17,793 nt of DNA from Verrucomicrobiota bacterium (GTDB lineage: Bacteria > Verrucomicrobiota > Verrucomicrobiia > Limisphaerales > JADLHS01), in the NCBI GenBank assembly GCA_025457745.1, contig JALOTT010000121.1, forward strand, positions 1-17,793, written 5' to 3'. A program made the position numbers and the translations under genes. This document shows, piece after piece, positions 77 through 15,719 of this stretch. Every line of letters begins with the position of its first letter. Within the stretch, counting starts at the first letter, position 1. The notes beneath the pieces were generated by a model. That model saw only the letters and a program-made list of their open reading frames with translations, was not told the origin of the DNA and did not search any database.

Positions 77-255
77 AATTGTTACCTCGTCCGTGATTGA
101 TGCGTGCCGGGCCTCGGATAACCAAGGCTTGTTTCAAACGTCGGTTCGGTGCATAAAACCGACATGCGCAAGCATAAGAGAACCCTGAGCTTATGGGAAC
201 CCGTGACTGTGAAATGCCGGCACGGTCTGCCTTCGGCTCGCACCAATCCTGTGCT

Positions 256-1353: not shown

Positions 1354-1357
1354 AGGC

Positions 1358-2896: not shown

Positions 2897-3591
2897 AACC
2901 GAAGACCAAATCCCCGCCGGCGCCCAAACGCAAACGCATCCTCGTCGTGGACGACCATCCGCTGATGCGCGAGGGCGTGAGTCAATGGATTCAACGCGCG
3001 CCCGAATTGGAAGTCTGCGCCCAGGCGGAGTCGGCGGCCCAGGCCGTTTCCCTGGCGGAAAAACTCAAACCCGACCTCGTGCTCACCGACATTTCGTTGA
3101 TGGGCCGCAACGGTCTTGAACTCATCAAAGACCTGGGCGCGCTTCAGCCCGGCCTGCCGGTGCTTGTGCTTTCGATGCACGAGGAATCGCTTTACGCCGG
3201 GCGGGCCCTCCGCGCCGGCGCGCGCGGTTACATCATGAAACGCGCCGGCGGCGACCGCGTGGTCGAAGCCATCCGTGAAGTGTTCCAGGGCCGCATCGCT
3301 GTCAGCCCCGAAATGGCGACGCACTTGCTGGAGGAATACTCCGGGCGAAAATCGCGCTCCGGGCGCACGGCGCTGCCGAATCTCACGGACCGGGAATTTG
3401 AAATCTTTCAATTGCTCGGCGAGGCCAAGAGCAACCGGGAGATTGCCGAACAACTTCATCTCAGCCCGAAGACGGTGGAAACACATCGCATGAACCTGGC
3501 GCGCAAGCTCAAAGTCAAGAGCGCTGTCGAGTTGCTGCGCTTCGCCCTGCAATACGTCGAGAAAGAGGCCTCGGGCGACCTGGGCGGTTGA
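2893..3591 (+). CDS. NarL/FixJ-family response regulator (REC + LuxR-type HTH)
   Basis: Receiver motifs are present: ILVVDDHP, phospho-acceptor in LVLTDISLMG, VLVLSMHEE, YIMKRAG. The C-terminal LuxR HTH is LTDREFEIFQLLGEAKSNREIAEQLHLSPKTVETHRMNLARKLKV. ATG 2893 overlaps the kinase stop in an ATGA arrangement. Confidence 0.9.
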   Translation: MKPKTKSPPAPKRKRILVVDDHPLMREGVSQWIQRAPELEVCAQAESAAQAVSLAEKLKPDLVLTDISLMGRNGLELIKDLGALQPGLPVLVLSMHEESLYAGRALRAGARGYIMKRAGGDRVVEAIREVFQGRIAVSPEMATHLLEEYSGRKSRSGRTALPNLTDREFEIFQLLGEAKSNREIAEQLHLSPKTVETHRMNLARKLKVKSAVELLRFALQYVEKEASGDLGG

Positions 3592-3663
3592 CACCACGCT
3601 GGCGTTTTCCTGGTTAATCACGCGCGCTCACTTCATCGGCTAGTTTTCAGCGGTGATTTCCTC

Positions 3664-3683
3664 CGCACGTGACTCGCACGTGC
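3664..3683 (+). promoter_or_regulatory. Tandem direct repeat CGCACGTG-N3-CGCACGTG (two CACGTG palindromes 11 bp apart); candidate transcription-factor site upstream of the pseudo-receiver gene
   Basis: Sequence cgcacgtgactcgcacgtgc is read directly from the window. It lies in the 266-bp intergenic region, about 175 bp upstream of ATG 3858. Function is purely inferred. Confidence 0.3.
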
Positions 3684-3857
3684 CCTTCAGCAATTCGCTG
3701 GTATCTCTCGGCGTTTTGCTGAACCTCAACCGGAACTTCATCCCATTGTGGGCGAAAGCGCCGACGCGTTAGAGTGCGCGTGTGTATCAAGTGCATCAAC
3801 GACGCGGCAGTGGCGACCGACGGCCAGGAACGACTTCAAAACCCGTTTGGTTTGAAG

Positions 3858-4301
3858 ATGAGCAGGACGTCAAAGCGTAACGTGGCGAACGGGCGCAATG
3901 CCGTGTTTCTCGTGGACCGGCACGCGCTCATGCGGCGTGCCGCCGCCCATTGGATCAATTCGAGTTCCGGTCTGAAGGTCTGCGGCATGGCGGGCGGCGT
4001 GGCGGGCGCATTCCGAGCAGTCAAACGATTGCGCCCGGACATTGTAGTCTCGGAAATCATGCGACCACACGACCTCGGTTTCATCCGGGAGTTGCATCGG
4101 CGGCATCCGGGTCTGCCGATTCTCGTTTTTTCCATGCAAGACGCAGCGGTGTATGCGGCCAGGGCGCGGGAAGTTGGTGCCAGCGGCTATTTGATGAAAG
4201 ACGTGGGCGGAGAACAACTTGTCCACGGCATTCGCGCCATGCTGAGTCGGCGAAAGGGTCACTCCATCCGGCCTGCCCGGACTCGGCGACCGGCTGAGTG
4301 A
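3858..4301 (+). CDS. Stand-alone, output-domain-less pseudo-receiver (paralog of the adjacent NarL-type regulator; phospho-acceptor Asp replaced by Glu)
   Basis: It aligns residue-for-residue with the receiver of the 2893-3591 protein: VFLVDRHALM vs ILVVDDHPLM; PDIVVSEIMRPHDLGF vs PDLVLTDISLMGRNGL (D->E at the phosphorylation site); ILVFSMQ vs VLVLSMH; YLMKDVG vs YIMKRAG. There is no HTH. Start is ambiguous between ATG 3774 and ATG 3858; 3858 was chosen as it sits ~17 aa before the first beta-strand. Confidence 0.7.
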   Translation: MSRTSKRNVANGRNAVFLVDRHALMRRAAAHWINSSSGLKVCGMAGGVAGAFRAVKRLRPDIVVSEIMRPHDLGFIRELHRRHPGLPILVFSMQDAAVYAARAREVGASGYLMKDVGGEQLVHGIRAMLSRRKGHSIRPARTRRPAE

Positions 4302-4416
4302 ACTCAGGCAATTGCTGAAGCGCGTTGGGCGGCAGACCGATTGTGTGGAGCACAAGTGCGGGACTAGAGTGTAAATGTCGTAACTGTGAAACAGAACCAA
4401 ATCAGCGATCAACGAT

Positions 4417-4992
4417 ATGAGTGCGACGGCAATTCGAGACGAAGAGATCGGAAATTCTTTTGAAACGACCATGAAAGCAGTGATCCTCTACGACGAATTC
4501 GATCTGGCAGCGAAGGCGAATGCGCTGCTGACGCGCGCGGCCAACCGGGCAGACCCGGCTGTGCCGTGGAGCATCAACCCCTGGCGACTGGACATGCTGA
4601 TGCTGCCGCCGACTGCCGACAATGCGCTCCAAGATACGGCAGGCGCGCACCTGATAGTGTTGGCGATCCAGCGCCAAAGGGAGTTGCCGCCCTGGCTGTT
4701 CAACTGGCTGGAAAAGTGGGCCGGGTGCCGAGAGGTTCAAGACGTCGCCTTCGCCGTGTTCGATGGTGGGAACGGGGGCATGCTGTCAATGCCTGCCGCG
4801 CCCGAGTTGTCCCGCTTTGCCGAGCGACACGGCTTGTGTTTCATCTTTGGCGACGTGCATCCGGACGAAGGCAAATCGGCCGGATCTTTGGACGACCTGC
4901 ACGCGCGTGAGGTGACGCAGACGCCGACAATGGTTCACATCCTGGAGCAGACGCCCCGCCGCTACTATCAGCATTGGGGAATCAACGAGTGA
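4417..4992 (+). CDS. Hypothetical protein (no recognisable family); alternative start at ATG 4471
   Basis: It is a 191-codon ORF in the coding strand orientation of the locus (MSATAIRDEEIGNSFETTMKAVILYDEFDLAAKANALL...). The N-terminus after M19 (MKAVILYDEF) faintly resembles a flavodoxin/CheY-like beta1 strand, but there is no confident motif. No good RBS is seen for either start. Confidence 0.5.
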   Translation: MSATAIRDEEIGNSFETTMKAVILYDEFDLAAKANALLTRAANRADPAVPWSINPWRLDMLMLPPTADNALQDTAGAHLIVLAIQRQRELPPWLFNWLEKWAGCREVQDVAFAVFDGGNGGMLSMPAAPELSRFAERHGLCFIFGDVHPDEGKSAGSLDDLHAREVTQTPTMVHILEQTPRRYYQHWGINE

Positions 4993-5048
4993 GTCGCGGC
5001 GCAGTCGTGGCGCTGATTGCGATTTGAAATTCCGATGTCCGACCAAAC

Positions 5049-5387
5049 ATGAAGACAACCGTGAACAACAATGTTATTGAAGTAAACGAAGCGAACTTTC
5101 CGCGGGAAGTGCTCGGCGCGCGGAGGCCCGTGCTGGTGCAGTTTTGGGCCAGTTGGTCTGATCCGTGCAAGGCCATGACCCCCGTGCTCGAATCCGTCGC
5201 CGAACATGAGGCCACCCCGGTCAAAGTGGCCCGGGTGAACGTGGAGCATCACGAAGGGTTGGCCGAGGAATATGGCGTGCGCGCCGTGCCCACTCTGCTT
5301 ATTTTCAACCGGGGAAATCTACAGGACCAGATCATCGGGCGCGCCACCGAACAGGAAGTGCGCGAGAAATTAGAATGCTTGAAATGA
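5049..5387 (+). CDS. Thioredoxin-fold protein with non-canonical active site WSDPC (CGPC -> SDPC; nucleophilic Cys missing)
   Basis: It aligns along its whole length with classical thioredoxin: VLVQFWASWSDPCKAMTPVLESVAEH...VKVARVNVEHHEGLAEEYGVRAVPTLLIFNRGNL, compared with E. coli [27 protein letters not shown]...[30 protein letters not shown]. The cis-Pro (VPTLL) is conserved. The first Cys of CxxC is replaced by Ser. Confidence 0.8.
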   Translation: MKTTVNNNVIEVNEANFPREVLGARRPVLVQFWASWSDPCKAMTPVLESVAEHEATPVKVARVNVEHHEGLAEEYGVRAVPTLLIFNRGNLQDQIIGRATEQEVREKLECLK

Positions 5388-5630
5388 ATTTCCGAAAGCC
5401 AAATTGCGGTGGCGATGTGCGGGTGTTGAGAATCCACGCTCCAGAGCAGGACCAAACCTCATCGCCCGTCGAGATCAAGTTTAACCGCGGGCATCCGCTT
5501 GAGAACAACGAATTGCCGGCTCGGTTGAGCCGACTGCGATGCGGGCAAGAGACCCGTAAAACGGTTGCGCCCGCACCGCGACAAACCGAACTCATCAACG
5601 CATAACCATCGAAACAGAGAAAGGACCAAC

Positions 5631-5924
5631 ATGACACCACATGAAGCAAATCAACGGCTGACCGGCGATCTTAAACTGGTCATGCGCGACGCGGAGGAGT
5701 TGCTCAAGGCCACCGCGGGCGAGGCGGGCGAAAAAGTGAAGGAAGTGCGCAGCCGGCTGACGACGGCGCTAGATTCCGCCAAGGCCACGTGCGAACACCT
5801 CCAAGACAAAACCGTCGAAGCGGCCAAGGCCACGGATCACGTCATCCGCGAGCATCCCTATGAATCCATCGGCATCGCCTTTGGCGTGGGGCTGCTAATT
5901 GGCGTGCTGGTCGGACGCCGTTAA
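5631..5924 (+). CDS. DUF883 / ElaB-YqjD-family membrane-anchored stress protein
   Basis: It has an N-terminal coiled-coil and the C-terminal signature [26 protein letters not shown] (conserved HPY...GxGxLxG tail anchor of ElaB/YqjD/YgaM). Strong RBS aaagga 7 nt before ATG 5631. Confidence 0.8.
   Translation: MTPHEANQRLTGDLKLVMRDAEELLKATAGEAGEKVKEVRSRLTTALDSAKATCEHLQDKTVEAAKATDHVIREHPYESIGIAFGVGLLIGVLVGRR
5838..5912 (+). repeat. Dispersed direct repeat, copy A (tail-anchor coding segment of DUF883 gene); copy B at 9523-9597
   Basis: atccgcgagcatccctatgaatccatcggcatcgcctttggcgtggggctgctaattggcgtgctggtcgg (copy A) versus atccgcgagcatccgtatgaatccatgggcgtcgccttcggtgttgggctgctgattggtgtgctggtcat (copy B). 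About 85% nucleotide identity over ~72 nt, read directly from the sequence. Confidence 0.8.
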
Positions 5925-5928
5925 ACCC

Positions 5929-6315
5929 ATGGACGAAAGCGAAACAATCCGTCCAGGCGTGTTGGACACCTTGCGGCGGCTTGGCACCACCGTTCTAGCC
6001 ATTTTTCAGAACCGGCTGGAGTTGCTGGTGGTCGAGTTGCAGGAGGAACGCATCCGCCTTTTCAACGCGCTCTTGCTGACGGCGGCGATCGTGGCGCTGG
6101 GTTTCTTCACGCTGGCGATGGCGGCCCTCGCGCTAGTCATCGTCGTCTGGAATCAATTCGGCGTGAAAGGGCTGTTGTTGATGAGCGCGCTGGGTTTGAT
6201 CAGCACACTGCTGTCCTATTGGCGGCTGCGCGTGCGTTTGAAGAACTGGCCGCTGTTATCCGGCACGCTGGCCGAACTCAAAAAGGACCGCGAATGTTTG
6301 GAGAGCAAGAAATGA
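5929..6315 (+). CDS. YqjE-like inner-membrane protein (holin-X / Phage_holin_3_6 superfamily, DUF1469-like)
   Basis: It shows the two-TM architecture and the motif FQNRLELLVVELQEERIRLFNALLLTAAIVALGFF...ALALVIVVW, characteristic of YqjE homologs encoded immediately downstream of elaB/yqjD-type genes. It starts 5 nt after the upstream stop. Confidence 0.7.
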   Translation: MDESETIRPGVLDTLRRLGTTVLAIFQNRLELLVVELQEERIRLFNALLLTAAIVALGFFTLAMAALALVIVVWNQFGVKGLLLMSALGLISTLLSYWRLRVRLKNWPLLSGTLAELKKDRECLESKK

Positions 6316-6614
6316 CGGCACTTCAACTGCGCAAACAAACGCTGTTGCTGGAGAGCGACCTGAACCGCCTGACGCTGCACGTCGAATGTGCGCAGTTGCG
6401 CGAAGCCACGAATTGGATGGGCCAGATCAGAGGGGCGCAAAAAAGAATTCCTTCGTGGGCGCTGGCCGTGGCGCCGCTGGCGGGTGTGGCGTTGGTGCTG
6501 GGCCTGCGCCGTTCCTCGGCCGGCGCTGGACTTTTGACAAAGGCCCTGGGAGTCGCACCCTCGCTGATCCAGATTTGGCGCATGTTTTCGGCGTCATCCA
6601 ACGAACCGAAATAA
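6312..6614 (+). CDS. YqjK-like small membrane protein (third gene of yqjD-yqjE-yqjK-type triad)
   Basis: ATG 6312 overlaps the upstream stop (aATGAcg). The ~100 aa protein has an N-terminal amphipathic region (LQLRKQTLLLESDLNRLTLHVECAQLREA) and one TM (WALAVAPLAGVALVLGL). Size and position match YqjK. The assignment rests on synteny more than on motifs. Confidence 0.55.
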   Translation: MTALQLRKQTLLLESDLNRLTLHVECAQLREATNWMGQIRGAQKRIPSWALAVAPLAGVALVLGLRRSSAGAGLLTKALGVAPSLIQIWRMFSASSNEPK

Positions 6615-6664
6615 ACCTGGCTCGAAGGGCCGCACCGCCCGCGGGCCGCAACCGAAGGATAAAC

Positions 6665-6970
6665 ATGGCAAAAACCAACCATACAAACCCCGCAAAGCTC
6701 GGAACAAAGCGTGGCCGGACTCAGACGTTCTCCATCACCGCACCCACGGCGATGAGTGTACAGTTGGTGGGCGACTTCACGCATTGGACGCAGCAGCCGA
6801 TCAACATGCAAAAGAGCGCGGACGGCGTCTGGCGCACCAGTGTCGAACTTGAACCGGGCACGCACCACTACCGTTTCCTCGTGGACGGTCAGTGGCGTGA
6901 TGATCCAGAATGTGCGTTGCACGTGCCGAATCCGTACGGCAGTCAGGACGCAGTTCGGCAAGTCGCTTAA
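6665..6970 (+). CDS. Stand-alone CBM48 / AMPK-beta-type glycogen-binding domain protein (101 aa)
   Basis: It matches the AMPK beta GBD / isoamylase N-domain consensus: VQLVGDFTHWTQQPINMQKSADGVWRTSVELEPGTHHYRFLVDGQWRDDPE (W...W...L.PG.H.YKF.VDG.W..DP). RBS aagga precedes ATG 6665. The in-frame upstream extension to 6386 overlaps the previous gene and is discounted. Confidence 0.8.
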   Translation: MAKTNHTNPAKLGTKRGRTQTFSITAPTAMSVQLVGDFTHWTQQPINMQKSADGVWRTSVELEPGTHHYRFLVDGQWRDDPECALHVPNPYGSQDAVRQVA

Positions 6971-7093
6971 CCGGTTTGGCCTCCGGTCCCTGGGCGCGAT
7001 GAGTTAGGTTGTCCGGCCTGCAAGGGCCGAGGGGATGATGCGTCCTTAGCGTTGGGCAGCCAGGTTTCGGGCGCGCCACAACCGGAAAGAAAC

Positions 7094-7438
7094 ATGAAAG
7101 AAATAAAAGCGTATATCAGGCTACTCTGTGCCAGCCAGGTTATCAAAGATCTAAAGGATGCTGGCGCCAAAGACCTGACCCTGATCCGGGTGGACGCAAT
7201 CCGCCCCGTGAATTATCAAGGGCAGGCGGTGGAAGCCGAGTCTGCTAACTATGTCACGCGCTACTCGACCGTCGCCAAACTGGAATTGGTTTGCCGGGAC
7301 GAGGAAGCGAAGCTCTTCGCCGAGATCATCCGGGCCCGCGCCCACACCGGCAAGAAGGGTGATGGAAGGGTATTCGTGAGCAACGTGGAAGAGGCAGTCA
7401 ATATTCGCACGGGAGAAACCGGCGATACGGCTCTTTGA
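7094..7438 (+). CDS. Divergent PII (GlnB/GlnK)-superfamily signal-transduction protein, stand-alone
   Basis: The N-terminus MKEIKAYIRL matches PII beta1. The B-loop HTGKKGDGRVFV and the C-terminal NIRTGETG match the PII signatures TGxxGDGKIFV / IRIRTGE. The T-loop region (RPVNYQGQAVEAESANYVTRY) is longer and unlike the canonical RGQKGxxELYRGAEY. The gene has noticeably lower GC than its neighbours. No amtB/glnA neighbour is present. Confidence 0.8.
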   Translation: MKEIKAYIRLLCASQVIKDLKDAGAKDLTLIRVDAIRPVNYQGQAVEAESANYVTRYSTVAKLELVCRDEEAKLFAEIIRARAHTGKKGDGRVFVSNVEEAVNIRTGETGDTAL

Positions 7439-7689
7439 ACGAACACAGTTACGACTTTTTTCCCATGATCAGGCCGCATCGGTCTTTACCTGATGGCTCT
7501 CAGCGTTTCCCGGAAGCGGCATCCGCCCTTGGCCGATAGCGTCACGGCCGGCGCAAAGGTAACTTGAAATCGTGCGGTTTCACCAAACCGGACGAAGCTG
7601 GTGGAAGTTGTCTTGAACGAGCGCAGCCGATGAGTGATTTACGACGCGCGTGGGAACGTGATGCTCGGCCCGAAAAACACAACCTGAAA

Positions 7690-8205
7690 ATGAAAACGAA
7701 AAAACAACCAGGAACTATGGTAAACCGCGGAGAAAGAAAACGGGGAGGTGCCAAAGCCGCAACGCTGAAACTGCGCCGGATTCTCGTGCCGCTGGACTTC
7801 TCCGGCAAATCACGCCAGGCACTCGATTTCGCCGTGCCCTTGGCGAAGCAATACGGCGGAAAAGTCTTCCTGCTTCACGTGGTCGAGCCGCCTTACGTTT
7901 ATCCCTATCACCCCGGCGAGATTGGGGTTGCGGCGGTGGACCCACGACCCATTGCCGAAGCTTCCAAGAAAAAACTCTCAGCCTTGGCCCGTGAACTCGT
8001 GCCGCCGGACGTGCTCGGCAAGACGATGGTGCGCACCGGTCGCGCGTACTTGGAAATCGTTGATGCCGCCGATGAACTGGGCGCGGACCTCATTGCGTTG
8101 AGCACGCACGGTCATACCGGTCTCAAACACGTCCTCCTTGGCAGCACCGCCGAACATGTTGTGCGGCACGCGCGCCGTCCGGTGCTCACGGTGCGCCGAC
8201 ATTGA
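7690..8205 (+). CDS. Universal stress protein (UspA family, ATP-binding UspFG type) with basic N-terminal leader
   Basis: It contains RILVPLDFSGKSRQALDFAVPLAKQYGGKVFLLHVVEP. The C-terminal ATP-binding motif is ALSTHGHTGLKHVLLGSTAEHVVRHARRPVLTV (G-x2-G-x9-G-S/T). Start at ATG 7690 (MKTKKQPG...) was chosen by analogy with the paralogs' MxxKTxxx leaders, ~28 aa before RILVP; ATG 7564/7630 are possible but less likely. Confidence 0.85.
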   Translation: MKTKKQPGTMVNRGERKRGGAKAATLKLRRILVPLDFSGKSRQALDFAVPLAKQYGGKVFLLHVVEPPYVYPYHPGEIGVAAVDPRPIAEASKKKLSALARELVPPDVLGKTMVRTGRAYLEIVDAADELGADLIALSTHGHTGLKHVLLGSTAEHVVRHARRPVLTVRRH

Positions 8206-8226
8206 CCCAAATCCCAGAGACAACTC

Positions 8227-8754
8227 ATGCGGATTAAAACGACAAAATCGCAAGTTCGGAGAAAAACCGCCCGCGTTCTGCCGCGGCAGCGAATCATTGT
8301 GCCGATTGACTTTTCAAAAAACTCGCTGCGCGCGCTGGATGTGGCCGTGTCGCTGGCCGGGCAATGCGGGGGGAAAATCAATTTACTGCACGTTGTCCAG
8401 CCGCCCGCCGCATCTACCTGGTACGCCGTCCCTGGGGGAAAACACTATCTCGGTCTGACCCTTCACAACCTCGCCGACGCCGCCCGGAAGCGGCTGACGG
8501 CGATGGCATCGGAACGCCTCCCACCGCAGTTGCAGGGACAAACTCTCGTGCGGCAGGGATCGGCTTACGAACAAATCATTTCTGCGGCGCGGCGGTTGGA
8601 TGTGACTTTGATTGTCATCAGCACGCATGGCCTTACCGGCCTCAAAAGGATGCTGATCGGCAGCACCGCTGAACGCGTTGTGCGCCACGCGCACTGCCCG
8701 GTGCTCACGGTGCCGTTGACGGAGATCCAGGAGAAAAATTATGCAAACGAATAA
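8227..8754 (+). CDS. Universal stress protein (UspA family), paralog 2
   Basis: It contains ARVLPRQRIIVPIDFSKNSLRALDVAVSLAGQCGGKINLLHVVQP and ISTHGLTGLKRMLIGSTAERVVRHAHCPVLTV. It starts 21 nt after the Usp1 stop. Confidence 0.9.
   Translation: MRIKTTKSQVRRKTARVLPRQRIIVPIDFSKNSLRALDVAVSLAGQCGGKINLLHVVQPPAASTWYAVPGGKHYLGLTLHNLADAARKRLTAMASERLPPQLQGQTLVRQGSAYEQIISAARRLDVTLIVISTHGLTGLKRMLIGSTAERVVRHAHCPVLTVPLTEIQEKNYANE
8268..8370 (+). repeat. Tandem-paralog nucleotide repeat (5' region of usp paralog 2; partner at 8781-8885 in paralog 3)
   Basis: ccgcccgcgttctgccgcggcagcgaatcattgtgccgattgacttttcaaaaaactcgctgcgcgcgctggatgtggccgtg... (paralog 2) versus ccgcccgcgttctgccttggcggcgaatcctcgtgccaactgatttttcaaaaacctcgctgcgcgcgtttgatgtggccgtg... 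(paralog 3). About 85% identity over ~105 nt. The 3' ends of paralogs 1 and 2 (~8100-8195 vs ~8620-8715) are similarly conserved. Confidence 0.75.
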
Positions 8755-9256
8755 AACCGCAAGGGGACTCCCGAACAAGCCCGCCCGCGTTCTGCCTTGG
8801 CGGCGAATCCTCGTGCCAACTGATTTTTCAAAAACCTCGCTGCGCGCGTTTGATGTGGCCGTGCCGTTGGCCCGCGACTGCGGAGCGCGACTGTGCCTCC
8901 TCTCCGTCATTGAACCCGCGGCGTATGCCACGGGTCTGGAAGGATTGGTGATCGCGGTGCCGGACACTATGCTGGTCAGGGACGCCAGGGCCGGGCTGCC
9001 CAGGCTTGCACGACGATTTGTTCCGTCGGCCATACCCGTTACTTGTTGGGTAAAGCGGGGAAAAGCGTTCGATGTCATCACCGAGGTTGCGCAGCAGAAG
9101 AACATTGACCTCATCGTGCTGGCCAGTCATGGCCGCACGGGTTTTGATCGCGTTCTGATGGGCAGCACGGCGGAACGAGTTGTGCGCCATGCCCGGTGTC
9201 CCGTCTTTGTCGTGCGGGCATCCCATCCAAATCACGGAAAACAACCAAAGGACTAA
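8741..9256 (+). CDS. Universal stress protein (UspA family), paralog 3
   Basis: It contains ARVLPWRRILVPTDFSKTSLRAFDVAVPLARDCGARLCLLSVIEP and ASHGRTGFDRVLMGSTAERVVRHARCPVFVV. It overlaps Usp2 by 14 nt. The 5' ~105 nt are ~85% identical to the corresponding part of Usp2. Confidence 0.9.
   Translation: MQTNKTARGLPNKPARVLPWRRILVPTDFSKTSLRAFDVAVPLARDCGARLCLLSVIEPAAYATGLEGLVIAVPDTMLVRDARAGLPRLARRFVPSAIPVTCWVKRGKAFDVITEVAQQKNIDLIVLASHGRTGFDRVLMGSTAERVVRHARCPVFVVRASHPNHGKQPKD
8781..8885 (+). repeat. Tandem-paralog nucleotide repeat (5' region of usp paralog 3; partner at 8268-8370)
   Basis: See 8268-8370. Confidence 0.75.
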
Positions 9257-9259
9257 ACC

Positions 9260-10261
9260 ATGGAAACCTATTTTGGAGTAATCGAGCAAGCCGGAGGCAG
9301 CCTCGCCCGCGAACGGGTGTTGGCTGACCTCAAGACGCTGATCCGTGATTCTGAAAACCTGCTCAAGGTCACGTCCGCTGACGTAAGCGACAAGGCTCAG
9401 GAAGCGCGCTCCCGCGCCACCGCCGCGCTTGAACGAGCGAAAGCCATCTACTCGGAATGGCAGGATCAGGCCGTCGCGACCGCGAAAGCCACCGCCAAAA
9501 AGACGGACATAATAATCCGCGAGCATCCGTATGAATCCATGGGCGTCGCCTTCGGTGTTGGGCTGCTGATTGGTGTGCTGGTCATACGGAGCGCCCGGAA
9601 TGGGCGGGAAGCCAAAGGGCCGGGCCTGATTCTGCTCATACCGATTGTGGACCGGATCGTGAAGGTGGACTTGCGCGTGGTCACCATTGACGTGGCCAGT
9701 CAGGAGATGATGACCCGCGACAACGTGCCGGTCACCGTGGATGCCGTGGTCTATTTTCGTGTGGTGGACCCGGAGGCCGCCATCGTCAAGATCGAGAATT
9801 TCTACAAGGCGACCTCGCTCATTGCCCAAACGACCTTGCGCAGTGTTATCGGGCAGGCGGAACTGGACGAGCTGCTTTCGCACCGCGAGAAAATCAACCA
9901 ACGTCTTCAGGAGATCATAGATCGCCAGACCGATCCGTGGGGCATCAAGGTGACCTCCGTCGAGGTCAAGGATGTGTCGTTGCCCGAAACGATGAAGCGC
10001 GCGATGGCCAAACAGGCCGAAGCCGAACGCGAACGCCGCGCGAAGATCGTCAATGCCGAAGGCGAATTTCAGGCCGCCGAGAAGATGGTGCAGGCCGCCG
10101 CGTTGATCAGCACCCAACCCATCGCTCTGCAATTGCGCTTCCTGCAAACCATGCGCGAGATTTCTGGCGAGCACAACACGACCACGTTCCTGCCGCTGCC
10201 CATTGATTTGTTCACTCCCTTTCTGAAGCGCGGCACCGATGGCAGCGCGAAAGGTGCGTAA
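9260..10261 (+). CDS. Chimeric DUF883 (ElaB/YqjD-like coiled-coil + tail anchor) :: SPFH/band-7 (stomatin-like) protein
   Basis: Residues 1-108 are paralogous to the 5631-5924 protein, including [23 protein letters not shown]. From ~aa 118 onward it is a classical prokaryotic stomatin: [94 protein letters not shown]...[53 protein letters not shown]...[13 protein letters not shown]. The usual first SPFH strand (IV.EYER.VVFRLGR) is absent and replaced by the linker [10 protein letters not shown]. Starts 3 nt after the Usp3 stop. Confidence 0.85.
9523..9597 (+). repeat. Dispersed direct repeat, copy B (inside the DUF883::SPFH chimeric gene, immediately 5' of the fusion junction)
   Basis: See copy A (5838-5912). 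The repeat ends exactly where the homology with the free-standing DUF883 gene stops and stomatin-like sequence begins. Confidence 0.8.
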
Positions 10262-10926
10262 TGTCAGCAACCAAAAGAGACGCCATGAAAACCAGGAACA
10301 CCAAACGCAAACTTGCCGAAACGGCTGTGGGAATGGCAGTGGGCGGTGCCGTGGCTGGCCCCATTGGCGCCGTGGCCGGCGCTTTCGTGGCCGGCCATGT
10401 CGAAGAAGGGCTGGAACACGTCGCGAAACTCAAGCCACCGCAGGACTGGAACAAGCTTGCCGCGGATGATCCCCTGATTCATGTCTGGCCCAAGCGCATC
10501 CTCGTCCCGCTCGACTTTTCGCCGCCGTCACGGCGGGCCTTGCGCTTTGCCCGCCACTGGGCGGATTTCTTTGCCGCCAAGGTGTACCTGCTGCATGTCG
10601 TCGAGCCGACCACTGCAGTTGGCGAGTTCGGAACGGTGCCGCTGGGCGCGGTCCAGCGCGACATTTCGGGCAAGGCCAAAGCGGCCTTGGGTGAATTGGC
10701 GCGCACGGAGTTCCCAGATTCGATCCCGATCCGCATGGTCGTCCGAAAAGGAAAAGCGTACGACCAGATCGCCGCCACCGCGCGATCCATCCGCGCTGAT
10801 CTCATCATCATCGCAACGCACGGCCGTACCGGCCTGAAGCATGTGGTGCTCGGCAGCACCGCCGAGCGCGTCGCGCGCCATGCGCCGTGTCCGGTGTTGG
10901 TGTTGCGCCGCAGCGCAACTCGCTGA
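10261..10926 (+). CDS. Universal stress protein (UspA family), paralog 4, with N-terminal glycine-zipper hydrophobic segment
   Basis: The N-terminus has a basic patch followed by AVGMAVGGAVAGPIGAVAGAFVAG (repeated GxxxG/AxxxG). It then has KRILVPLDFSPPSRRALRFARHWADFFAAKVYLLHVVEP and IATHGRTGLKHVVLGSTAERVARHAPCPVLVL. ATG 10261 overlaps the upstream TAA by 1 nt (alternative ATG 10282). Confidence 0.85.
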   Translation: MSATKRDAMKTRNTKRKLAETAVGMAVGGAVAGPIGAVAGAFVAGHVEEGLEHVAKLKPPQDWNKLAADDPLIHVWPKRILVPLDFSPPSRRALRFARHWADFFAAKVYLLHVVEPTTAVGEFGTVPLGAVQRDISGKAKAALGELARTEFPDSIPIRMVVRKGKAYDQIAATARSIRADLIIIATHGRTGLKHVVLGSTAERVARHAPCPVLVLRRSATR

Positions 10927-10953
10927 AACGCTGAGGAGCTAACCAAGACAACC

Positions 10954-11424
10954 ATGAGTCAGGAATTCCAAAGTCCCAGCAAAACCGCGACAGAAACCCC
11001 GGCACCGCGGAAAACAAGACCCCGCCTCCGGTCATGGCTGCCAGTGATCGTCCTGCTCGCTGCTTTCTGCGCGGGCTTTGTTCCGATGTGGCTCAGGTCC
11101 AGCCGGCTGACGGGGGAATTGCACCGGACACAGCAGGAACTGCGACGGACGCAACTTCAGATCACGCTGGCCTGCGCGGCTCTGGACGCCCGGCGCGGCG
11201 ATTACGAAGCCGCCCGACAAGGTGCGGCCAACTTCTTCAGCCTGGTCACAGCGGAACTCGACCGCGGAATCGGATCGGCCTTGCCATTAAACGCACGAAC
11301 AGGGCTGCAGCCGCTCCTGGCGGAGCGTGACGACTTGATCACCCTGCTGGCTCGCGGCGATCCGGCGTCTGCCGAGCGGCTCGGCAACGCTTACGCCGAG
11401 TTTCGGAAGACCCTCGGCAAGTGA
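10954..11424 (+). CDS. Hypothetical single-pass membrane protein with coiled-coil region
   Basis: It has a basic N-terminus, one TM (SWLPVIVLLAAFCAGFVPMWL) and a helical/charged remainder (TGELHRTQQELRRTQLQITLACAALDARRGDYEAARQ). No family was recognised. It is in the strand orientation of the locus with a short 27-nt gap to the upstream gene. Confidence 0.5.
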   Translation: MSQEFQSPSKTATETPAPRKTRPRLRSWLPVIVLLAAFCAGFVPMWLRSSRLTGELHRTQQELRRTQLQITLACAALDARRGDYEAARQGAANFFSLVTAELDRGIGSALPLNARTGLQPLLAERDDLITLLARGDPASAERLGNAYAEFRKTLGK

Positions 11425-11463
11425 ACATCTCATGGTCAGCCAACGGCACTTCACATCACCTAG

Positions 11464-12855
11464 ATGAAAATCACACTCCACGGCGCGGCGGGTGAAGTCA
11501 CCGGCTCGGCCTATCTGTTGGAAACCGCCCGCGCGCGGGTGCTCGTGGATTTCGGCATGTTCCAAGGCGGAGGGAATACCGATGCGAAAAACGTTCTGCC
11601 CTTGGGACTCGATCCCAAGCGGCTCGATGCAGTGTTGCTGACCCACGCGCACCTCGACCACTGCGGGCGACTGCCGTTGCTGACCAAAGCCGGCTATCAA
11701 GGCGGCATTTACGCCACTGGTGCCACGCGTGACCTGGCCGGATTGATTCTGCGCGATTCAGCGAAAGTCCAGTCCTACGACGTTGAACGCAAGAATCGCA
11801 AGCGTGAGCGGGCCGGGAAGCCTCTGCTCGAACCGCTCTACAACGCCAACGAAGTTGACCAGACGATGTCACGCTTTCGGGATGTCGAGTTTGACCGGTC
11901 CTTCCAGGTCGGCGAGGGCATCACGGCGCGTTACACCATTGCCGGACACATGCTCGGCTCGGCCAGCATCAAACTCACCGTCCAGGAAAAAGGGAAAACG
12001 AGGATTGTCGTTTTCTCCGGCGACATCGGCCCAATGCATCTGGCGATCATCCGGGGCGCCGTGCCGTTCAAACATGCGGACCTCGTGTTCATGGAATCCA
12101 CCTACGGCGACCGGGACAACAAGCCGTTGAAAGAAACGCTCGCCGAGTTTCGCGGCATCATCCAGGACGCGGTGAAACGCCGGGCGCGCATTCTTGTCCC
12201 CGCGTTTGCGGTCGGGCGCACGCAGCAGATTCTGTATCATTTGGATGAACTGTTCTGCGCCAGCAAGCTCAAGCCGTTCCCGGTCTTTCTCGACAGCCCG
12301 ATGGCGATTGAAGCGACGAACATTTACCGCCGTCACCCGGACTTGTTCGACGACGAAGCCAAGGCGTGGCGTCGCGGCTGTGCCCTCACCCGAAAACAAG
12401 CGCATGTGAAACCCACGCCCACCGCGCAGGATTCCATGAAGCTCAACGACGTTTCCGGCCCGTGCCTCATCATGGCCGGTTCGGGCATGTGCACCGCCGG
12501 TCGCATCCTTCACCATTTCAAGCACGGCCTGTGGCAGCCCGACACCGTCGTGATGATCGTCGGCTATCAGGGCGAAGGCACGCTGGGTCGCCAACTCGTG
12601 GACGGCGCGAAATCCGTAAAAATCTTCGGCGAGAAAATCGCGGTCAAGGCGCACATCCACACGTTGAACGGCTTCAGTGCCCACGCCGGCCAGAGCGCAC
12701 TGATGAACTGGTTCGGCAGCCTCGCGCCGTCCAAACCCAAAGTGGTCCTCACTCACGGTGAAGCGCGCGGGCGCGAACCGCTGGCCGAACTCATCCGCAA
12801 GCGGCATGGACTCAAGCCGATTCTGCCAGCGCAGGGAGATGTCATCAAGCTGTGA
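11464..12855 (+). CDS. Beta-CASP family metallo-beta-lactamase-fold ribonuclease (RNA-metabolising MBL, CPSF73/RNase J-like)
   Basis: The N-terminus MKITLHGAAGEVTGSAYLLETARARVLVDFGMFQG and the motif-2 LLTHAHLDHCGRLP (HxHxDH) are present. Downstream D/H motifs (FSGDIG, FMESTYGD, HTLNGFSAHAG, VLTHGE) follow the beta-CASP order (motifs A, B, C). Length is 463 aa. Confidence 0.85.
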   Translation: MKITLHGAAGEVTGSAYLLETARARVLVDFGMFQGGGNTDAKNVLPLGLDPKRLDAVLLTHAHLDHCGRLPLLTKAGYQGGIYATGATRDLAGLILRDSAKVQSYDVERKNRKRERAGKPLLEPLYNANEVDQTMSRFRDVEFDRSFQVGEGITARYTIAGHMLGSASIKLTVQEKGKTRIVVFSGDIGPMHLAIIRGAVPFKHADLVFMESTYGDRDNKPLKETLAEFRGIIQDAVKRRARILVPAFAVGRTQQILYHLDELFCASKLKPFPVFLDSPMAIEATNIYRRHPDLFDDEAKAWRRGCALTRKQAHVKPTPTAQDSMKLNDVSGPCLIMAGSGMCTAGRILHHFKHGLWQPDTVVMIVGYQGEGTLGRQLVDGAKSVKIFGEKIAVKAHIHTLNGFSAHAGQSALMNWFGSLAPSKPKVVLTHGEARGREPLAELIRKRHGLKPILPAQGDVIKL

Positions 12856-14300
12856 AGCCAGGAATCCCATCCCGTTTTGCTTTCGACGTGGCCGTTGTCG
12901 GCGGCGGCAGTGCCGGTTTTGCCGCGGCGCGGACGGCGTCGGCCGCGGGGCTGCGCACCGTTGTGATCGAGGGCGGGCGCGAGTTGGGTGGTTTATGTAT
13001 TTTGCGCGGCTGCATGCCGAGCAAGGCGCTGCTCTGGGCGGCGGAAGTGCGCCACCTCGCGCAGCGCGCTGAGGTTTGGGGCATGAAGCCGAAGTCCATC
13101 CCCTTTCGATGGGAAAGAGTCATGGCGCGCAAAGAATCCATGATCCGCGATTTTGCCGCCTATCGCCAACGGCAACTCACCGGGAGCAAGTTCGCGCTCA
13201 TCCGCGCCCGCGCCACGTTTCAAAATCCCCACACCCTCGACCTCGGCAACGGGCGAACGCTGACGGCCCGGCATTTTGTTTTGGCCACCGGCTCGGTCGT
13301 TTCGCCTCCGCCGCTGCCTCAACTCCATAACGCGGGATTCATCACGAGCGACGAAGCAGTCACTCTGCGCCGATTGCCCAAATCACTCCTGGTGCTCGGC
13401 GGCGGCAGCGTGGCCGTGGAACTCGCCCAGCTCTTCGCGCGCTTCGACGTGGCGGTGACATTGATTCAGCGCAGCGACCACATCTTGCGCGGCTGCGATG
13501 CCGACGCCGCCGAGGCGCTCGAAACCGCGCTGCGCCGCGACGGCGTCCAGTTGTTCACCGGCACGAAACTGCTCGACGCGCGGCGGAAAGGACGGAAGAA
13601 AGTCGTGGAGTTTCAACACGCCGGAAAACGGAGGCGTGTCGCCGCTGAGGAAATCCTTCTCGCGCTGGGTCGTAGCCCCAACACGGCCTCGTTGAATCTG
13701 GATTTGGCCGGAGTGAAGACGGACGGCGGACGAATCGTGACCGATGAACAAATGCGCACGACAGCGCCGCACATCTACGCGGCGGGTGATTGCACCAGTC
13801 TGCACGAGGTGGTTCACGTGGCTATTCAGCAGGGAGAAACCGCGGCGCAAAACATCATCAACTCGCAGCAGCCGCGCGTCATGGATTGCCGGCTGCTGAC
13901 GCAGGTCGTGTTCACCGAACCGCAAATCGCCACCGTGGGCCTGACGGAAAAACAAGCCAAGGCCGCCGGCCAACGCGTCCTCGTTGCCCGCTATCCGTTC
14001 AACGACCACGGCAAATCCCTCATCATGGACGCGACGGATGGCTTCGTAAAACTGCTGGCGCATCCCGCCACAGGCGAAATCCTCGGCGGCGCGTGCGTTG
14101 GCCCGCTTGGCGGCGAACTCATCCACGAAATCGTGGCCGCGATGCACAGCCGCATGACCGTGCGCGAACTCGCCGTCATGCCGCACTACCATCCGACGTT
14201 GGCGGAAATCTGGACCTACCCTGCCGAGGAACTCGCGGAACAACTTCCTCACCGAAGAGTTTCATCGGCGAAAGCTGTTCGTCCCAATCCAAACCGGTAG
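12852..14300 (+). CDS. Class I FAD-dependent pyridine nucleotide-disulfide oxidoreductase (LpdA/MerA/glutathione-reductase family)
   Basis: The FAD dinucleotide fold FDVAVVGGGSAGFAAA is present. The redox-active disulfide is GGLCILRGCMPSK (CxxxxC; cf. GGTCLNVGCIPSK). The NAD(P) fold is LLVLGGGSVAVELAQLFARFDV. The C-terminal dimerisation/His-Glu pair is HYHPTLAEIW. It begins with GTG 12852, which overlaps the RNase stop (GTGA). No E1/E2 or mer genes are nearby, so the physiological substrate is unknown. Confidence 0.85.
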   Translation: MKPGIPSRFAFDVAVVGGGSAGFAAARTASAAGLRTVVIEGGRELGGLCILRGCMPSKALLWAAEVRHLAQRAEVWGMKPKSIPFRWERVMARKESMIRDFAAYRQRQLTGSKFALIRARATFQNPHTLDLGNGRTLTARHFVLATGSVVSPPPLPQLHNAGFITSDEAVTLRRLPKSLLVLGGGSVAVELAQLFARFDVAVTLIQRSDHILRGCDADAAEALETALRRDGVQLFTGTKLLDARRKGRKKVVEFQHAGKRRRVAAEEILLALGRSPNTASLNLDLAGVKTDGGRIVTDEQMRTTAPHIYAAGDCTSLHEVVHVAIQQGETAAQNIINSQQPRVMDCRLLTQVVFTEPQIATVGLTEKQAKAAGQRVLVARYPFNDHGKSLIMDATDGFVKLLAHPATGEILGGACVGPLGGELIHEIVAAMHSRMTVRELAVMPHYHPTLAEIWTYPAEELAEQLPHRRVSSAKAVRPNPNR

Positions 14301-14309
14301 AATCAAGTT

Positions 14310-14516
14310 ATGAAAGATCGCGTCTATAAACACATCGAACTCACCGGCACGTCCACGACCAGCATTGAGGACGCCGTGAATACGGCGCTCAAACGTGCGG
14401 GCAAAACCATCAAGAATCTGCGCTGGTTTCAAATCGTCGAAACGCGCGGCGACATTGACAAGAACCGCGTCGCCCACTGGCAGGTCACTTTGAAAGTCGG
14501 ATTCACCGTCGAATGA
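14310..14516 (+). CDS. Dodecin (small flavin-binding/storage protein)
   Basis: This 68-aa protein reads [68 protein letters not shown]. It matches the dodecin consensus (V/YK.IE..GTS......A...A...A..T...L.WFEV...RG....G.V..YQV...VGF.LE), including the flavin-stacking Trp. Confidence 0.85.
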
Positions 14517-14526
14517 AAGGAACGCC

Positions 14527-14814
14527 ATGAACCAGCCGCAACCGTCCCGCGAAACCATCGCCGAACGCGCCTATCATCTATGGGAACAGGCGGGCAAACC
14601 TTCCGGACGCGATGAAGAATTCTGGCTGCGCGCGGAGGCGGAATTGTCTGCGCCCGCGAGCGCAGTCGGTGTGCCACCCGTGATTGCACCCCCGGCCGCG
14701 CTTTTGCCAACGCCGCCGGTATTGCCGGTTCACCAGGTCCCGCCGCTTATCAAGGCCACCGTCAAATCGCCGGACCTCCGACCGCCGCCCCGCCGCCGGC
14801 CGAAACGCGCTTGA
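14527..14814 (+). CDS. DUF2934-domain protein with proline-rich C-terminal tail
   Basis: The N-terminal ETIAERAYHLWEQAGKPSGRDEEFWLRAEAEL matches the DUF2934 signature (I..RAY.LWE..G.P.G.D...W..AE.EL). The remainder is Pro-rich and low-complexity (PPVIAPPAALLPTPPVLPVHQVPP...RPPPRRRPKRA). Confidence 0.65.
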   Translation: MNQPQPSRETIAERAYHLWEQAGKPSGRDEEFWLRAEAELSAPASAVGVPPVIAPPAALLPTPPVLPVHQVPPLIKATVKSPDLRPPPRRRPKRA

Positions 14815-14862
14815 CCCTTCAACACGCCCAGGAAAAGAACGCGACACAGAAAGGAGTTTGTT

Positions 14863-15369
14863 ATGCGAAAATTCATCAATGGATTGATTGTCGGATTGAT
14901 CTTGGGCGTGGGCGGCTACTGGTTTTTCAGCCGGGCCAACCAGCCCCGCGCCGTTCAGCAAGCGCAACAGCGGTTGCGAGCAGTGGCCGCTGACACTCTC
15001 GCGAGCGCGGGACAGACCGCCGCTCAATTGGAGGAGATGCTCAAACCCAAGCTGGAAGCACTGGAATTGCAGGCCAGCACGGTCAAAGAGGAACTCGAAC
15101 AGACAGGCAAAGTGGTTCGCCGAAAGGCGCGCGACGCCGGCGCAGTTGTCGCCGATGCCGCCGCCGAGGCGCAGATCACGGCTGTCATCAAGGCCAAGTT
15201 GGCCGCCGACTCGGAACTCTCCGCTTGGAACATCGCGGTCAACACGACCGGTAGCGTGGTAACGCTTTCCGGGACGGTGTCGTCAGCGGATTTGATTGGC
15301 CGCGCCGTGCTGCTTGCGCTCGAAACCAAGGGTGTGACGCAAGTCGTTTCCACCTTGCAGGTCAAATGA
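14863..15369 (+). CDS. BON-domain protein (OsmY-like) with N-terminal membrane anchor
   Basis: RBS aaaggag precedes ATG 14863. The N-terminal TM is FINGLIVGLILGVGGYWFF. The C-terminal BON domain is ITAVIKAKLAADSELSAWNIAVNTTGSVVTLSGTVSSADLIGRAVLLALETKGVTQVVSTLQV. Confidence 0.8.
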   Translation: MRKFINGLIVGLILGVGGYWFFSRANQPRAVQQAQQRLRAVAADTLASAGQTAAQLEEMLKPKLEALELQASTVKEELEQTGKVVRRKARDAGAVVADAAAEAQITAVIKAKLAADSELSAWNIAVNTTGSVVTLSGTVSSADLIGRAVLLALETKGVTQVVSTLQVK

Positions 15370-15456
15370 TTGCATGAGCGGTTTTCCGACGTGACGAGCG
15401 AAGATAACGAACGCAAAGAACACTGCCGATCCAGCATTAGAAAACAGCCATTAGTC

Positions 15457-15672
15457 ATGAAAGAATTCACATTCAATTGTCCCACCTGTGGCCAGCCCAT
15501 TTTCGCGAAGCAAGACTGGGCCGGGCGCCGTATGAACTGTCCATCCTGCAGTAATCGCATAACCATTCCCGCCTCAGCAAGGGCGTCGAAGAAGAAAGCG
15601 CGGATCACGTCCATCAAAAAGACTGGTCTGAAGCCTCCTGGCGGCACAAAGCGTCTTCTGGGTTTCCCTTGA
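15457..15672 (+). CDS. Small zinc-ribbon protein (CPxCG...CPxC) with basic C-terminal tail
   Basis: It reads MKEFTFNCPTCGQPIFAKQDWAGRRMNCPSCSNRITIPASARASKKKARITSIKK... and contains two CxxC pairs 17 residues apart. The start is taken at internal ATG 15457 of the 15370-15672 ORF, because the upstream 29 codons directly abut the BON-gene stop and lack signal. Moderate confidence that it is expressed. Confidence 0.5.
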   Translation: MKEFTFNCPTCGQPIFAKQDWAGRRMNCPSCSNRITIPASARASKKKARITSIKKTGLKPPGGTKRLLGFP

Positions 15673-15719
15673 GAACACCGGGGCCCAACCGGCCAGCAAA
15701 AGTTTAATTGCTTTGAATT

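Follow-up and report, generated by a model that had tools for sequence, protein, structure and literature searches.

Tandem clusters of Usp genes occur in dormancy regulons such as that of DosR in Mycobacterium tuberculosis. The YqjD family of Escherichia coli binds the 50S ribosomal subunit, blocks the exit tunnel and requires dimerisation mediated by its transmembrane (TM) segment; the N-domains are the parts that bind ribosomes, synteny with yqjE and yqjK, a helix-breaking Pro and Gly residues within the TM segment have been reported as features of the family, and only about 300 homologues are on record from the whole Planctomycetes-Verrucomicrobia-Chlamydiae (PVC) group (bioRxiv 10.1101/2024.08.16.608256). 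Slipins of the SPFH1b type canonically form an operon with NfeD1b (PMC2636767), and SPFH proteins of the QmcA type are predicted to face the cytoplasm (PMC10434171). Here we analyse a stretch of 17,793 nucleotides (nt), called the window throughout, from contig JALOTT010000121.1 of a Verrucomicrobiota metagenome-assembled genome (MAG; GCA_025457745.1). It carries three Usp genes (Usp1 to Usp3), a single open reading frame (ORF) in which a DUF883 module (DUF883b) runs into most of a slipin, and a fourth Usp gene whose product has a Gly/Ala zipper (Usp4; Table 1).

A sequence-only reading of the window had listed these five genes and their domains; the coordinates were confirmed, and a Pfam check found Usp, DUF883 and Band_7. 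Its larger proposal, that a stomatin scaffold, a DUF883 anchor and a set of Usp proteins form an undescribed complex, is not supported, since the fusion is unique to one contig and an independent contig, L180, carries the slipin unfused. (L-numbers denote comparison loci or contigs, and P-numbers homologous proteins.) All parts of the window belong to known families. Our preferred explanation, to which as a whole we assign a probability of roughly 0.62, is that the window lies in an island with a recurrent Usp-DUF883b(-Usp4) unit, that a slipin was inserted into this unit, and that the fusion arose through a 169-nt deletion or is an artefact.

The DUF883b-slipin junction

The related metagenome contig L003 carries separate genes for a Usp3-like protein, a DUF883 protein of 113 amino acids (aa) that starts METYFG and ends ...NERE-stop, a slipin of 265 aa and a Gly-zipper Usp of 213 aa. 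Compared with the DNA of L003, exactly 169 nt are absent from the window, namely the stop codon of DUF883, the spacer and the first 49 codons of the slipin, and this loss joins the DUF883b and slipin frames in frame. Slipin DNA identity to the window begins at 9611 in L180, L001, L002 and L003 (alignment and blastn). L180, an independent JGI contig (sample 3300037461) found with the window Usp4 as query, is 100.000% identical to window positions 9611-14926 over 5316 nt and parts from it exactly at the junction, upstream of which it carries a native slipin N-terminus (...LPQMIRILREYERGVIFRLGKLLR, then AKGPGL). Because L180 is identical from the junction onward and has a normal slipin 5′ end, the fusion is, on these alignments, either a very recent deletion allele within a single strain-level population or a product of faulty assembly, and does not represent an architecture established by evolution. 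The result matters mainly as a correction: an apparently new two-domain membrane protein in a MAG is a strain-level deletion or assembly product, as comparison with the independent contig L180 shows at single-base resolution.

Homologue searches agreed in finding no protein with both DUF883 and Band_7, either among the best 120 of ~8000 slipin homologues or among the best 120 of 850 DUF883 homologues, the latter standing alone at 111-170 aa. Those best 120 slipins are ~224-268 aa long, with the sole exception of P0001 (366 aa), the only slipin match that outscored the window's own protein. P0001 was considered as a DUF883 fusion and rejected, its extra length being an internal slipin duplication; the tandem repeat of ~100 residues (AVVKVENF...EKMVQAA twice), on an ENA contig of 2374 nt, is either real or an assembly artefact.

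Both halves of the 333-aa translation are recognisable, with Pfam matches to DUF883 at aa 18-62, DUF883_C at aa 82-108 and Band_7 at aa 109-269 (E 2e-36), all above gathering scores. The DUF883b part is complete as a module of the YqjD/ElaB type, is kept up to the last sense codon of its homologues and is 71% identical to stand-alone 117-aa proteins; it scores 38.6 bits against PF05957 (cut-off 25.4) and 35.9 bits against PF19029 (cut-off 27), and it matches the NCBIfam ElaB model over positions 8-100 of 101 with E 1e-9, below the cut-off of that model. A helix-breaking Pro (IREHP90) stands beside the TM segment and Gly lies within it, matching the 120 listed homologues. The C-tail anchor seen in L003 and in all of the best 120 DUF883 homologues (111-170 aa) is not present in the window ORF, where 224 residues follow the TM segment. 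The slipin part scores 125.9 bits against Band_7 (PF01145), the match beginning at profile position 12, and has the SPFH domain, coiled coil and C-terminal region; the crystallised core of PH stomatin (3bk6, positions 2-179, corresponding to aa 129-306) and the C-terminal region are fully kept, and human stomatin aligns to aa 117-319. The missing segment encodes the TM anchor and the PQxIRxLREYERGVxFRLGKL strand and contains 14 positions that are invariant in 26 aligned slipins; the slipin's own N-terminal anchor and juxtamembrane strand (REYERGVxFRLG) are deleted. Because it is the product of a deletion, the fusion lacks the anchor and strand of slipins as well as the C-tail anchoring of YqjD-type proteins.

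Only one hydrophobic segment (aa 93-109) is present in the fused ORF, and basic residues flank it on either side; the DUF883 and SPFH domains must therefore, on this predicted topology, lie on opposite sides of the membrane. By analogy with their characterised relatives, both domains would natively be cytoplasmic; like QmcA, the slipin in its native form combines a short N-terminus with a TM segment and a basic C-flank. AlphaFold2, run on the fused protein with a shallow alignment, gave a predicted local distance difference test (pLDDT) score of ~85 for the DUF883 helices and below 40 for the SPFH part. The latter value was dropped as a sign of truncation damage because an intact control slipin (P0003), given an equally shallow alignment, was modelled equally poorly (mean pLDDT 53.6).

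Inspection of the alignment by eye revealed no repeat of assembler k-mer size at the junction edges, where the only shared strings are an 11-mer (TGGGCGTCGCC), at distances of 60 and 72 nt from it, and CGGGAA, with an offset of 10 nt. Because the edges show no repeat that could account for a slipped deletion or for a k-mer misjoin, the sequence alone does not separate a real allele from an artefact. Microhomology was dropped as a deletion mechanism, the only candidates being 6-mers of the CCAAAG/CGGGAA type that are out of register. The slipin part differs from that of L001 by 35 synonymous and 4 non-synonymous changes, a ratio of non-synonymous to synonymous rates (dN/dS) of 0.029. We do not take this low ratio as evidence that the fusion is functional, since L180 has the unfused allele at 100% identity and the constraint is therefore older than the deletion; dN/dS is silent on the fused product.

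The Usp-DUF883b unit and readings of the fused frame

Every DUF883b-type gene that was placed in context has a Usp gene directly 5′ of it, in the same orientation and 3-55 nt away (the window, L003, L164, L166-L168, L170, L171, L175 and L178). DUF883 matches were found at 6 of 80 Usp-anchored metagenome loci and at 0 of 80 slipin-anchored loci (one-sided P ~0.014, our own arithmetic). Judged by gene order, what recurs is a Usp gene with DUF883b immediately after it, often with the Gly-zipper Usp4 as the next gene. The orthologues of Usp3 in L003 (62%), L175 (68%) and L164 (61%) lie directly upstream of DUF883b, and a further Usp3 orthologue is found in L084 (63%); outside the window, Usp2 is matched best by the Usp that immediately precedes DUF883b in L166-L169 (66% identity). 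A limited literature search found no paper linking Usp with DUF883 or with a stomatin operon, and within that search the Usp-before-DUF883 synteny appears undescribed. In L166-L168 (5440-5997) the Usp upstream of DUF883b is split into two calls of 72 and 99 aa. Of the four places shown, which come from different samples (JGI and ENA), three have the split call, and the accompanying DUF883b, P0198, is present on 24 contigs; the pattern suggests a Usp gene with a frameshift that has been kept in a widespread population.

The slipin has a different history. Among 80 species-representative genomes with the closest slipins (76-87% identity), 75 of which had at least 1.5 kb of upstream sequence, none had a Usp or DUF883 gene beside the slipin, and NfeD1b (~425 aa) stood directly upstream of it in 61 of the 75. 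No such partner was found in the window (tblastn with an NfeD1b query, best E 0.85), and NfeD is absent at the slipin loci of L001, L003, L084 and L173. Three loci (L175, L176 and L178) carry Usp(-Usp)-DUF883b-Usp4 with no slipin. L084 has Usp1 and Usp3, an unrelated 126-codon ORF, the last 46 slipin codons and then Usp4, and is an independent loss at the fusion spot; its 126-codon ORF has no Pfam match and replaces DUF883b and most of the slipin (3629-4181). L001, in which slipin and Usp4 follow a degenerate Usp and DUF883 is absent, is a further rearrangement on the 5′ side of the slipin in a close relative, its slipin protein being 98.5% identical to the window slipin part; the truncated Usp (1840-2238, 132 aa, Pfam E 0.003) overlaps the start of the intact slipin.

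Because the slipin is absent from L175, L176 and L178 and reduced to a remnant in L084, it is dispensable and lineage-specific, and gene order points to an insertion between DUF883b and Usp4 that is being lost or remodelled. The conservation of Band_7 beside Usp and DUF883 that the sequence-only reading would have needed is contradicted by these same loci: 0 of 80 slipin loci adjoin Usp or DUF883, and three copies of the unit have no slipin. What survives of the module it had drawn is the conserved adjacency of Usp and the DUF883 anchor; the stomatin drops out.

Were the 333-aa protein real, expressed and functional, an SPFH ring would multimerise DUF883 modules into a membrane-scaffolded hibernation platform served by the Usp proteins, and SPFH oligomerisation would take over from, or reinforce, the dimerisation through the TM segment on which ribosome silencing by YqjD depends. 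We consider this quite unlikely, although the deletion preserves the frame and has its 5′ edge exactly at the stop codon, the 3bk6 core and the C-terminal oligomerisation region are fully kept, YqjD activity depends on oligomerisation and not on its own TM segment, and neither half has decayed in sequence. The fusion is known from a single contig and L180 is unfused, so there has been no time for selection and there is no conservation; the 14 residues invariant in 26 aligned slipins are gone; two natively cytoplasmic domains would be placed on opposite sides of the membrane; and the slipin is dispensable in the module (L175, L178 and L084). It is very unlikely that the functional product is instead the 240-aa slipin beginning at M94, with a captured DUF883 anchor and the first 93 codons left as a dead 5′ remnant. 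This is the model of the Prokaryotic Genome Annotation Pipeline (PGAP; MCU0784210.1), and its short N-terminus, one TM segment and four C-side K/R residues would, under the positive-inside rule, restore the native N-out/C-in orientation; but a Shine-Dalgarno (SD)-like sequence is found before 9260 and not before the ATG at 9539, this product too would lack the invariant REYERGVxFRLG strand, and it is as restricted to the window contig as the fusion is.

That the junction is an assembly or binning artefact, and that the true genome keeps DUF883b and slipin separate as in L003, would account for the end of the L180 identity (100% over 5316 nt) exactly at the junction and for the end of the L180 contig 138 nt further upstream, which suggests an unresolved graph region; the window is, moreover, a MAG contig. 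As an explanation of its own it is nevertheless unlikely: the edges show no repeat as long as an assembler k-mer, a clean, in-frame loss that begins at a stop codon is unusual for a misjoin, and short-read assemblers require k-mers across a join. Several points weigh against our preferred explanation. A de Bruijn assembler needs reads across the junction, which favours a physical molecule. A real, functional deletion allele is conceivable: the ORF is open from the conserved METYFG start, and an SD-like AAGGA stands before the start at 9260, 3 nt after the Usp3 stop. In L180 only 138 nt lie 5′ of the junction, so the upstream neighbour of its slipin is not visible, and the synteny sample comprises ~10 selected locus families and is not a census. 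Substitutions at conserved sites number 2 in the slipin part (median 1) and 3 in the DUF883 part (median 2); the absence of excess substitutions in both halves reflects history before the deletion and is silent on what the fused product does. In all 12 aligned Usp orthologues the ATP motif has Ser, Ala or Thr in place of its first Gly. Finally, co-transcription is deduced from spacing and conserved order only, and ribosome binding, nucleotide binding and any physical complex are inferences as well.

Usp proteins and the surrounding island

Pfam Usp (PF00582) matches all four proteins at full length (profile positions 2 or 3 to 141 of 141; E 1e-31 to 1e-34), at 110-120 bits against a cut-off of 24. 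All four had been credited with an intact G-x2-G-x9-G-S/T ATP-binding motif; in the register given by 4wny (MGTHGRRG...GS) and the Pfam consensus, the first Gly is Ser in Usp1 and Usp2 and Ala in Usp3 and Usp4, so each carries a variant. On the evidence of their motifs, the window proteins would fall outside the ATP-binding (MJ0577/UspFG) subclass defined by G-x2-G-x9-G-[S/T]. The pattern observed is [S/A/T]-x2-G-x-T-G-x6-G-S-T, and G-x9-G-S-T and the N-terminal P-x-D-F-S strand are invariant in the aligned Usps. The closest NCBIfam models are UspF, UspE and UspG, with scores far below the E. coli equivalog cut-offs. Basic N-terminal leaders are conserved in character among Usp1 and Usp3 orthologues; the K-x-ARVLP leader, which had been ascribed to three paralogues, is common to Usp2 and Usp3 only, and the basic leader of Usp1 is different. 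The start of Usp1 is backed by its orthologues in L084 (70% identity) and L175 (69%).

Usp4 probably starts at M9 (10285) and has 213 aa, because that is the length of the NCBI model (MCU0784211.1) and of most listed full-length homologues, many of them exactly 213 aa. Its Gly/Ala-rich segment (aa 20-46) is conserved in orthologues, and the basic stretch with the zipper (10285-10400, aa 9-46) is found in most listed full-length homologues (~208-230 aa). The glycine-zipper segment of the sequence-only reading is retained as a conserved Gly/Ala segment, but it is too weakly hydrophobic for a confident TM call: a true TM segment is unlikely, as mean hydropathy does not exceed 1.74 over any 17-residue stretch and the basic N-flank forces an N-in orientation in which the nucleotide-binding domain would be extracellular. 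No Pfam model was significant for the segment. Some homologues with the Usp4 architecture carry the Pfam family PF27000.

Table 1 Features of the window around the Usp genes and the fused ORF.
Feature	Coordinates	Strand	Description	Basis
DUF883a	5631-5924	+	ends ...GRR like YqjD/ElaB	Pfam
Holin-X/YqjE-like gene	5929-6315	+	4 nt after DUF883a	Pfam
YqjK-like gene	6312-6614	+	ATGA overlap with YqjE-like gene	Pfam
CBM48/AMPK-type glycogen-binding protein	6665-6970	+	between yqjDEK block and Usp1	Pfam
P-II-like protein	7094-7438	+	between yqjDEK block and Usp1	Pfam
Usp1	7690-8205	+	171 aa, basic N-terminal leader (MKTKKQ...)	Pfam Usp E 2.5e-32
Usp2	8227-8754	+	175 aa, leader ...RRKTARVLPRQRIIVP	Pfam Usp E 1.6e-31
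Usp3	8741-9256	+	171 aa; AGGAG at -14 to -10	Pfam Usp E 1.7e-34
Fused DUF883b-slipin ORF	9260-10261	+	333 codons	Pfam DUF883, DUF883_C, Band_7
DUF883b part	9260-9610	+	aa 1-117: helical N-domain, Pro90, Gly-rich hydrophobic segment aa 93-109	
NCBI product MCU0784210.1 (P0002)	9539-10261	+	240-aa slipin from M94, DUF883 hydrophobic segment as N-terminal anchor	
Fusion junction	9610-9611	+	E117/A118	DNA alignments, blastn
Slipin (SPFH1b/stomatin) part	9611-10261	+	aa 118-333; first 49 native codons gone	
Usp4	10261-10926	+	basic stretch, Gly/Ala zipper, Usp domain	Pfam E 6e-32, aa 78-216
Single-TM protein	10954-11424	+	156 aa, 27 nt after Usp4	
Beta-CASP metallo-beta-lactamase RNase	11464-12855	+	order repeated in L180	Pfam
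Pyridine-nucleotide-disulfide oxidoreductase	12852-14300	+	4-nt overlap with RNase gene; order repeated in L180	Pfam
Dodecin	14310-14516			L180 gene calls
DUF2934 gene	14527-14814			L180 gene calls

The window genes from 193 to 16742 all lie on the same strand. Gene spacings taken from the sequence are 21 nt (Usp1-Usp2), -14 (Usp2-Usp3) and 3 (Usp3-fused ORF), as had been given before; the fourth, given as -1, holds with the ATG at 10261 but becomes +23 if Usp4 starts at 10285, its counterpart in L003 being 22 nt. The delimitation of a five-gene unit is arbitrary, because the same-strand row runs on past Usp4 to 14300 (spacings 27, 39 and -4 nt) and scans give no promoter or terminator boundary: between 6900 and 15000 the pattern scan found zero promoter-like sites and 13 terminator-like sites (shuffled mean 11.3), the nearest inside Usp4, which leaves the operon ends undefined. 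The 156-aa TM protein probably shares a transcript with the row; it has homologues directly upstream of Usp-slipin in L001 (68%) and in L170-L172 (58%).

The most plausible reading places the row within a long stress/dormancy island, encoded on one strand and serving stationary phase or energy stress. On the 5′ side the order is thioredoxin, a yqjD-E-K-like block, CBM48, P-II-like and Usp1-2-3, and on the 3′ side DUF883b, slipin, Usp4, the TM protein, beta-CASP RNase, oxidoreductase, dodecin, DUF2934, BON and aldolase. The 5631-6614 segment is an archetypal yqjD-yqjE-yqjK-like block, which occurs with CBM48 and Usp-DUF883b also in L166-L169 and L177. Members of the wider island that recur are thioredoxin, the yqjDEK-like block, CBM48, the 156-aa TM protein, SpoIIAA-like genes and class I aldolase, the block in L166-L169, L177, L084 and L179 and the TM protein in L170-L172.

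Further observations concern individual members of the island. The window contig has two DUF883 paralogues, 3.3 kb apart. CBM48 adjoins Usp and DUF883 genes in many unrelated contigs, and in L003, L174, L177 and L166 the module lies near glycogen and trehalose genes (GH57, GH15, GH65, trehalose phosphatase and glucan-water dikinase). Upstream of the Usp island, 1337-4301 encodes a PAS-HisKA_3 histidine kinase, a LuxR/NarL-type response regulator and an orphan receiver domain, a layout that resembles DevS/DevR-type control of Usp-rich dormancy regulons. The beta-CASP RNase is similar to aCPSF1 and to the Cas14 MBL-CASP model (E 5e-107, below cut-off). An Rfam scan of the whole window gave no RNA family. 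A reading as a defence system was rejected, seven proteins of the row giving zero PADLOC matches at E <= 1e-3.

Proposed function and relation to known systems

The recurrent Usp-DUF883b unit is probably a stationary-phase ribosome-silencing module. In such a module the Usp and DUF883b genes would be co-expressed in stationary phase or under energy stress; DUF883b would bind the 50S subunit near the tunnel exit and silence ribosomes or tether them at the membrane, as YqjD, ElaB and YgaM do in E. coli; the UspFG-like proteins may act as nucleotide-binding partners or regulators; and an intact slipin would serve as an accessory, cytoplasm-facing membrane scaffold. A more specific version, which we regard as doubtful, would make the UspFG-like proteins of Verrucomicrobiota dedicated partners of a YqjD-type anchor, with Usp4 docking on the Gly-zipper TM segment of DUF883b or co-assembling with it, and the nucleotide status sensed by the Usps gating both membrane tethering and tunnel block of ribosomes. 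If that were true, the Usp family would gain a concrete client, and the one-off fusion would be a natural experiment in which the anchor tolerates a large C-terminal scaffold. Usp proteins are still without a general molecular function, and their link to a ribosome-silencing anchor offers a testable, if modest, lead: what recurs across Verrucomicrobiota contigs is a Usp gene before a hibernation factor of the YqjD/ElaB type, inside a conserved starvation island.

Compared with YqjD, ElaB and YgaM of E. coli, DUF883b has the same N and C regions of DUF883 and a P90 before a Gly-rich TM segment, and the DUF883 genes of the window likewise stand in a stress-gene neighbourhood; the upstream paralogue (5631-5924) shows the archetypal yqjD-yqjE-yqjK arrangement: its product ends in RR, and YqjE-like and YqjK-like genes come next. 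Unlike the YqjD family, however, the DUF883b of the window is not tail-anchored, having 224 residues after its TM segment, it is preceded by Usp genes and is not followed by yqjE and yqjK, and its phylum is Verrucomicrobiota. The slipin part shares the SPFH core, coiled coil and C-terminal region with SPFH1b slipins (Pyrococcus horikoshii PH1511/PH1510 and E. coli QmcA-YbbJ), but it has no NfeD as in the SPFH1b-NfeD1b operon, is embedded between Usp genes, and has its anchor and juxtamembrane strand replaced by DUF883b. The window Usps resemble those of the MJ0577/UspFG type (1mjh, 4wny and TeaD 3hgm) in their full-length fold, P-x-D-F-S strand 1 and G-x9-G-S-T phosphate loop, and differ from them in the Ser, Ala or Thr at the first motif Gly, in the 20-30-aa basic leader that each carries, and in the N-terminal Gly/Ala zipper of Usp4, which is common among its Verrucomicrobiota homologues. 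Like the tandem Usp clusters of DosR-type regulons, the Usp paralogues of the window stand in a stress island beside a PAS histidine kinase and a LuxR-type regulator.

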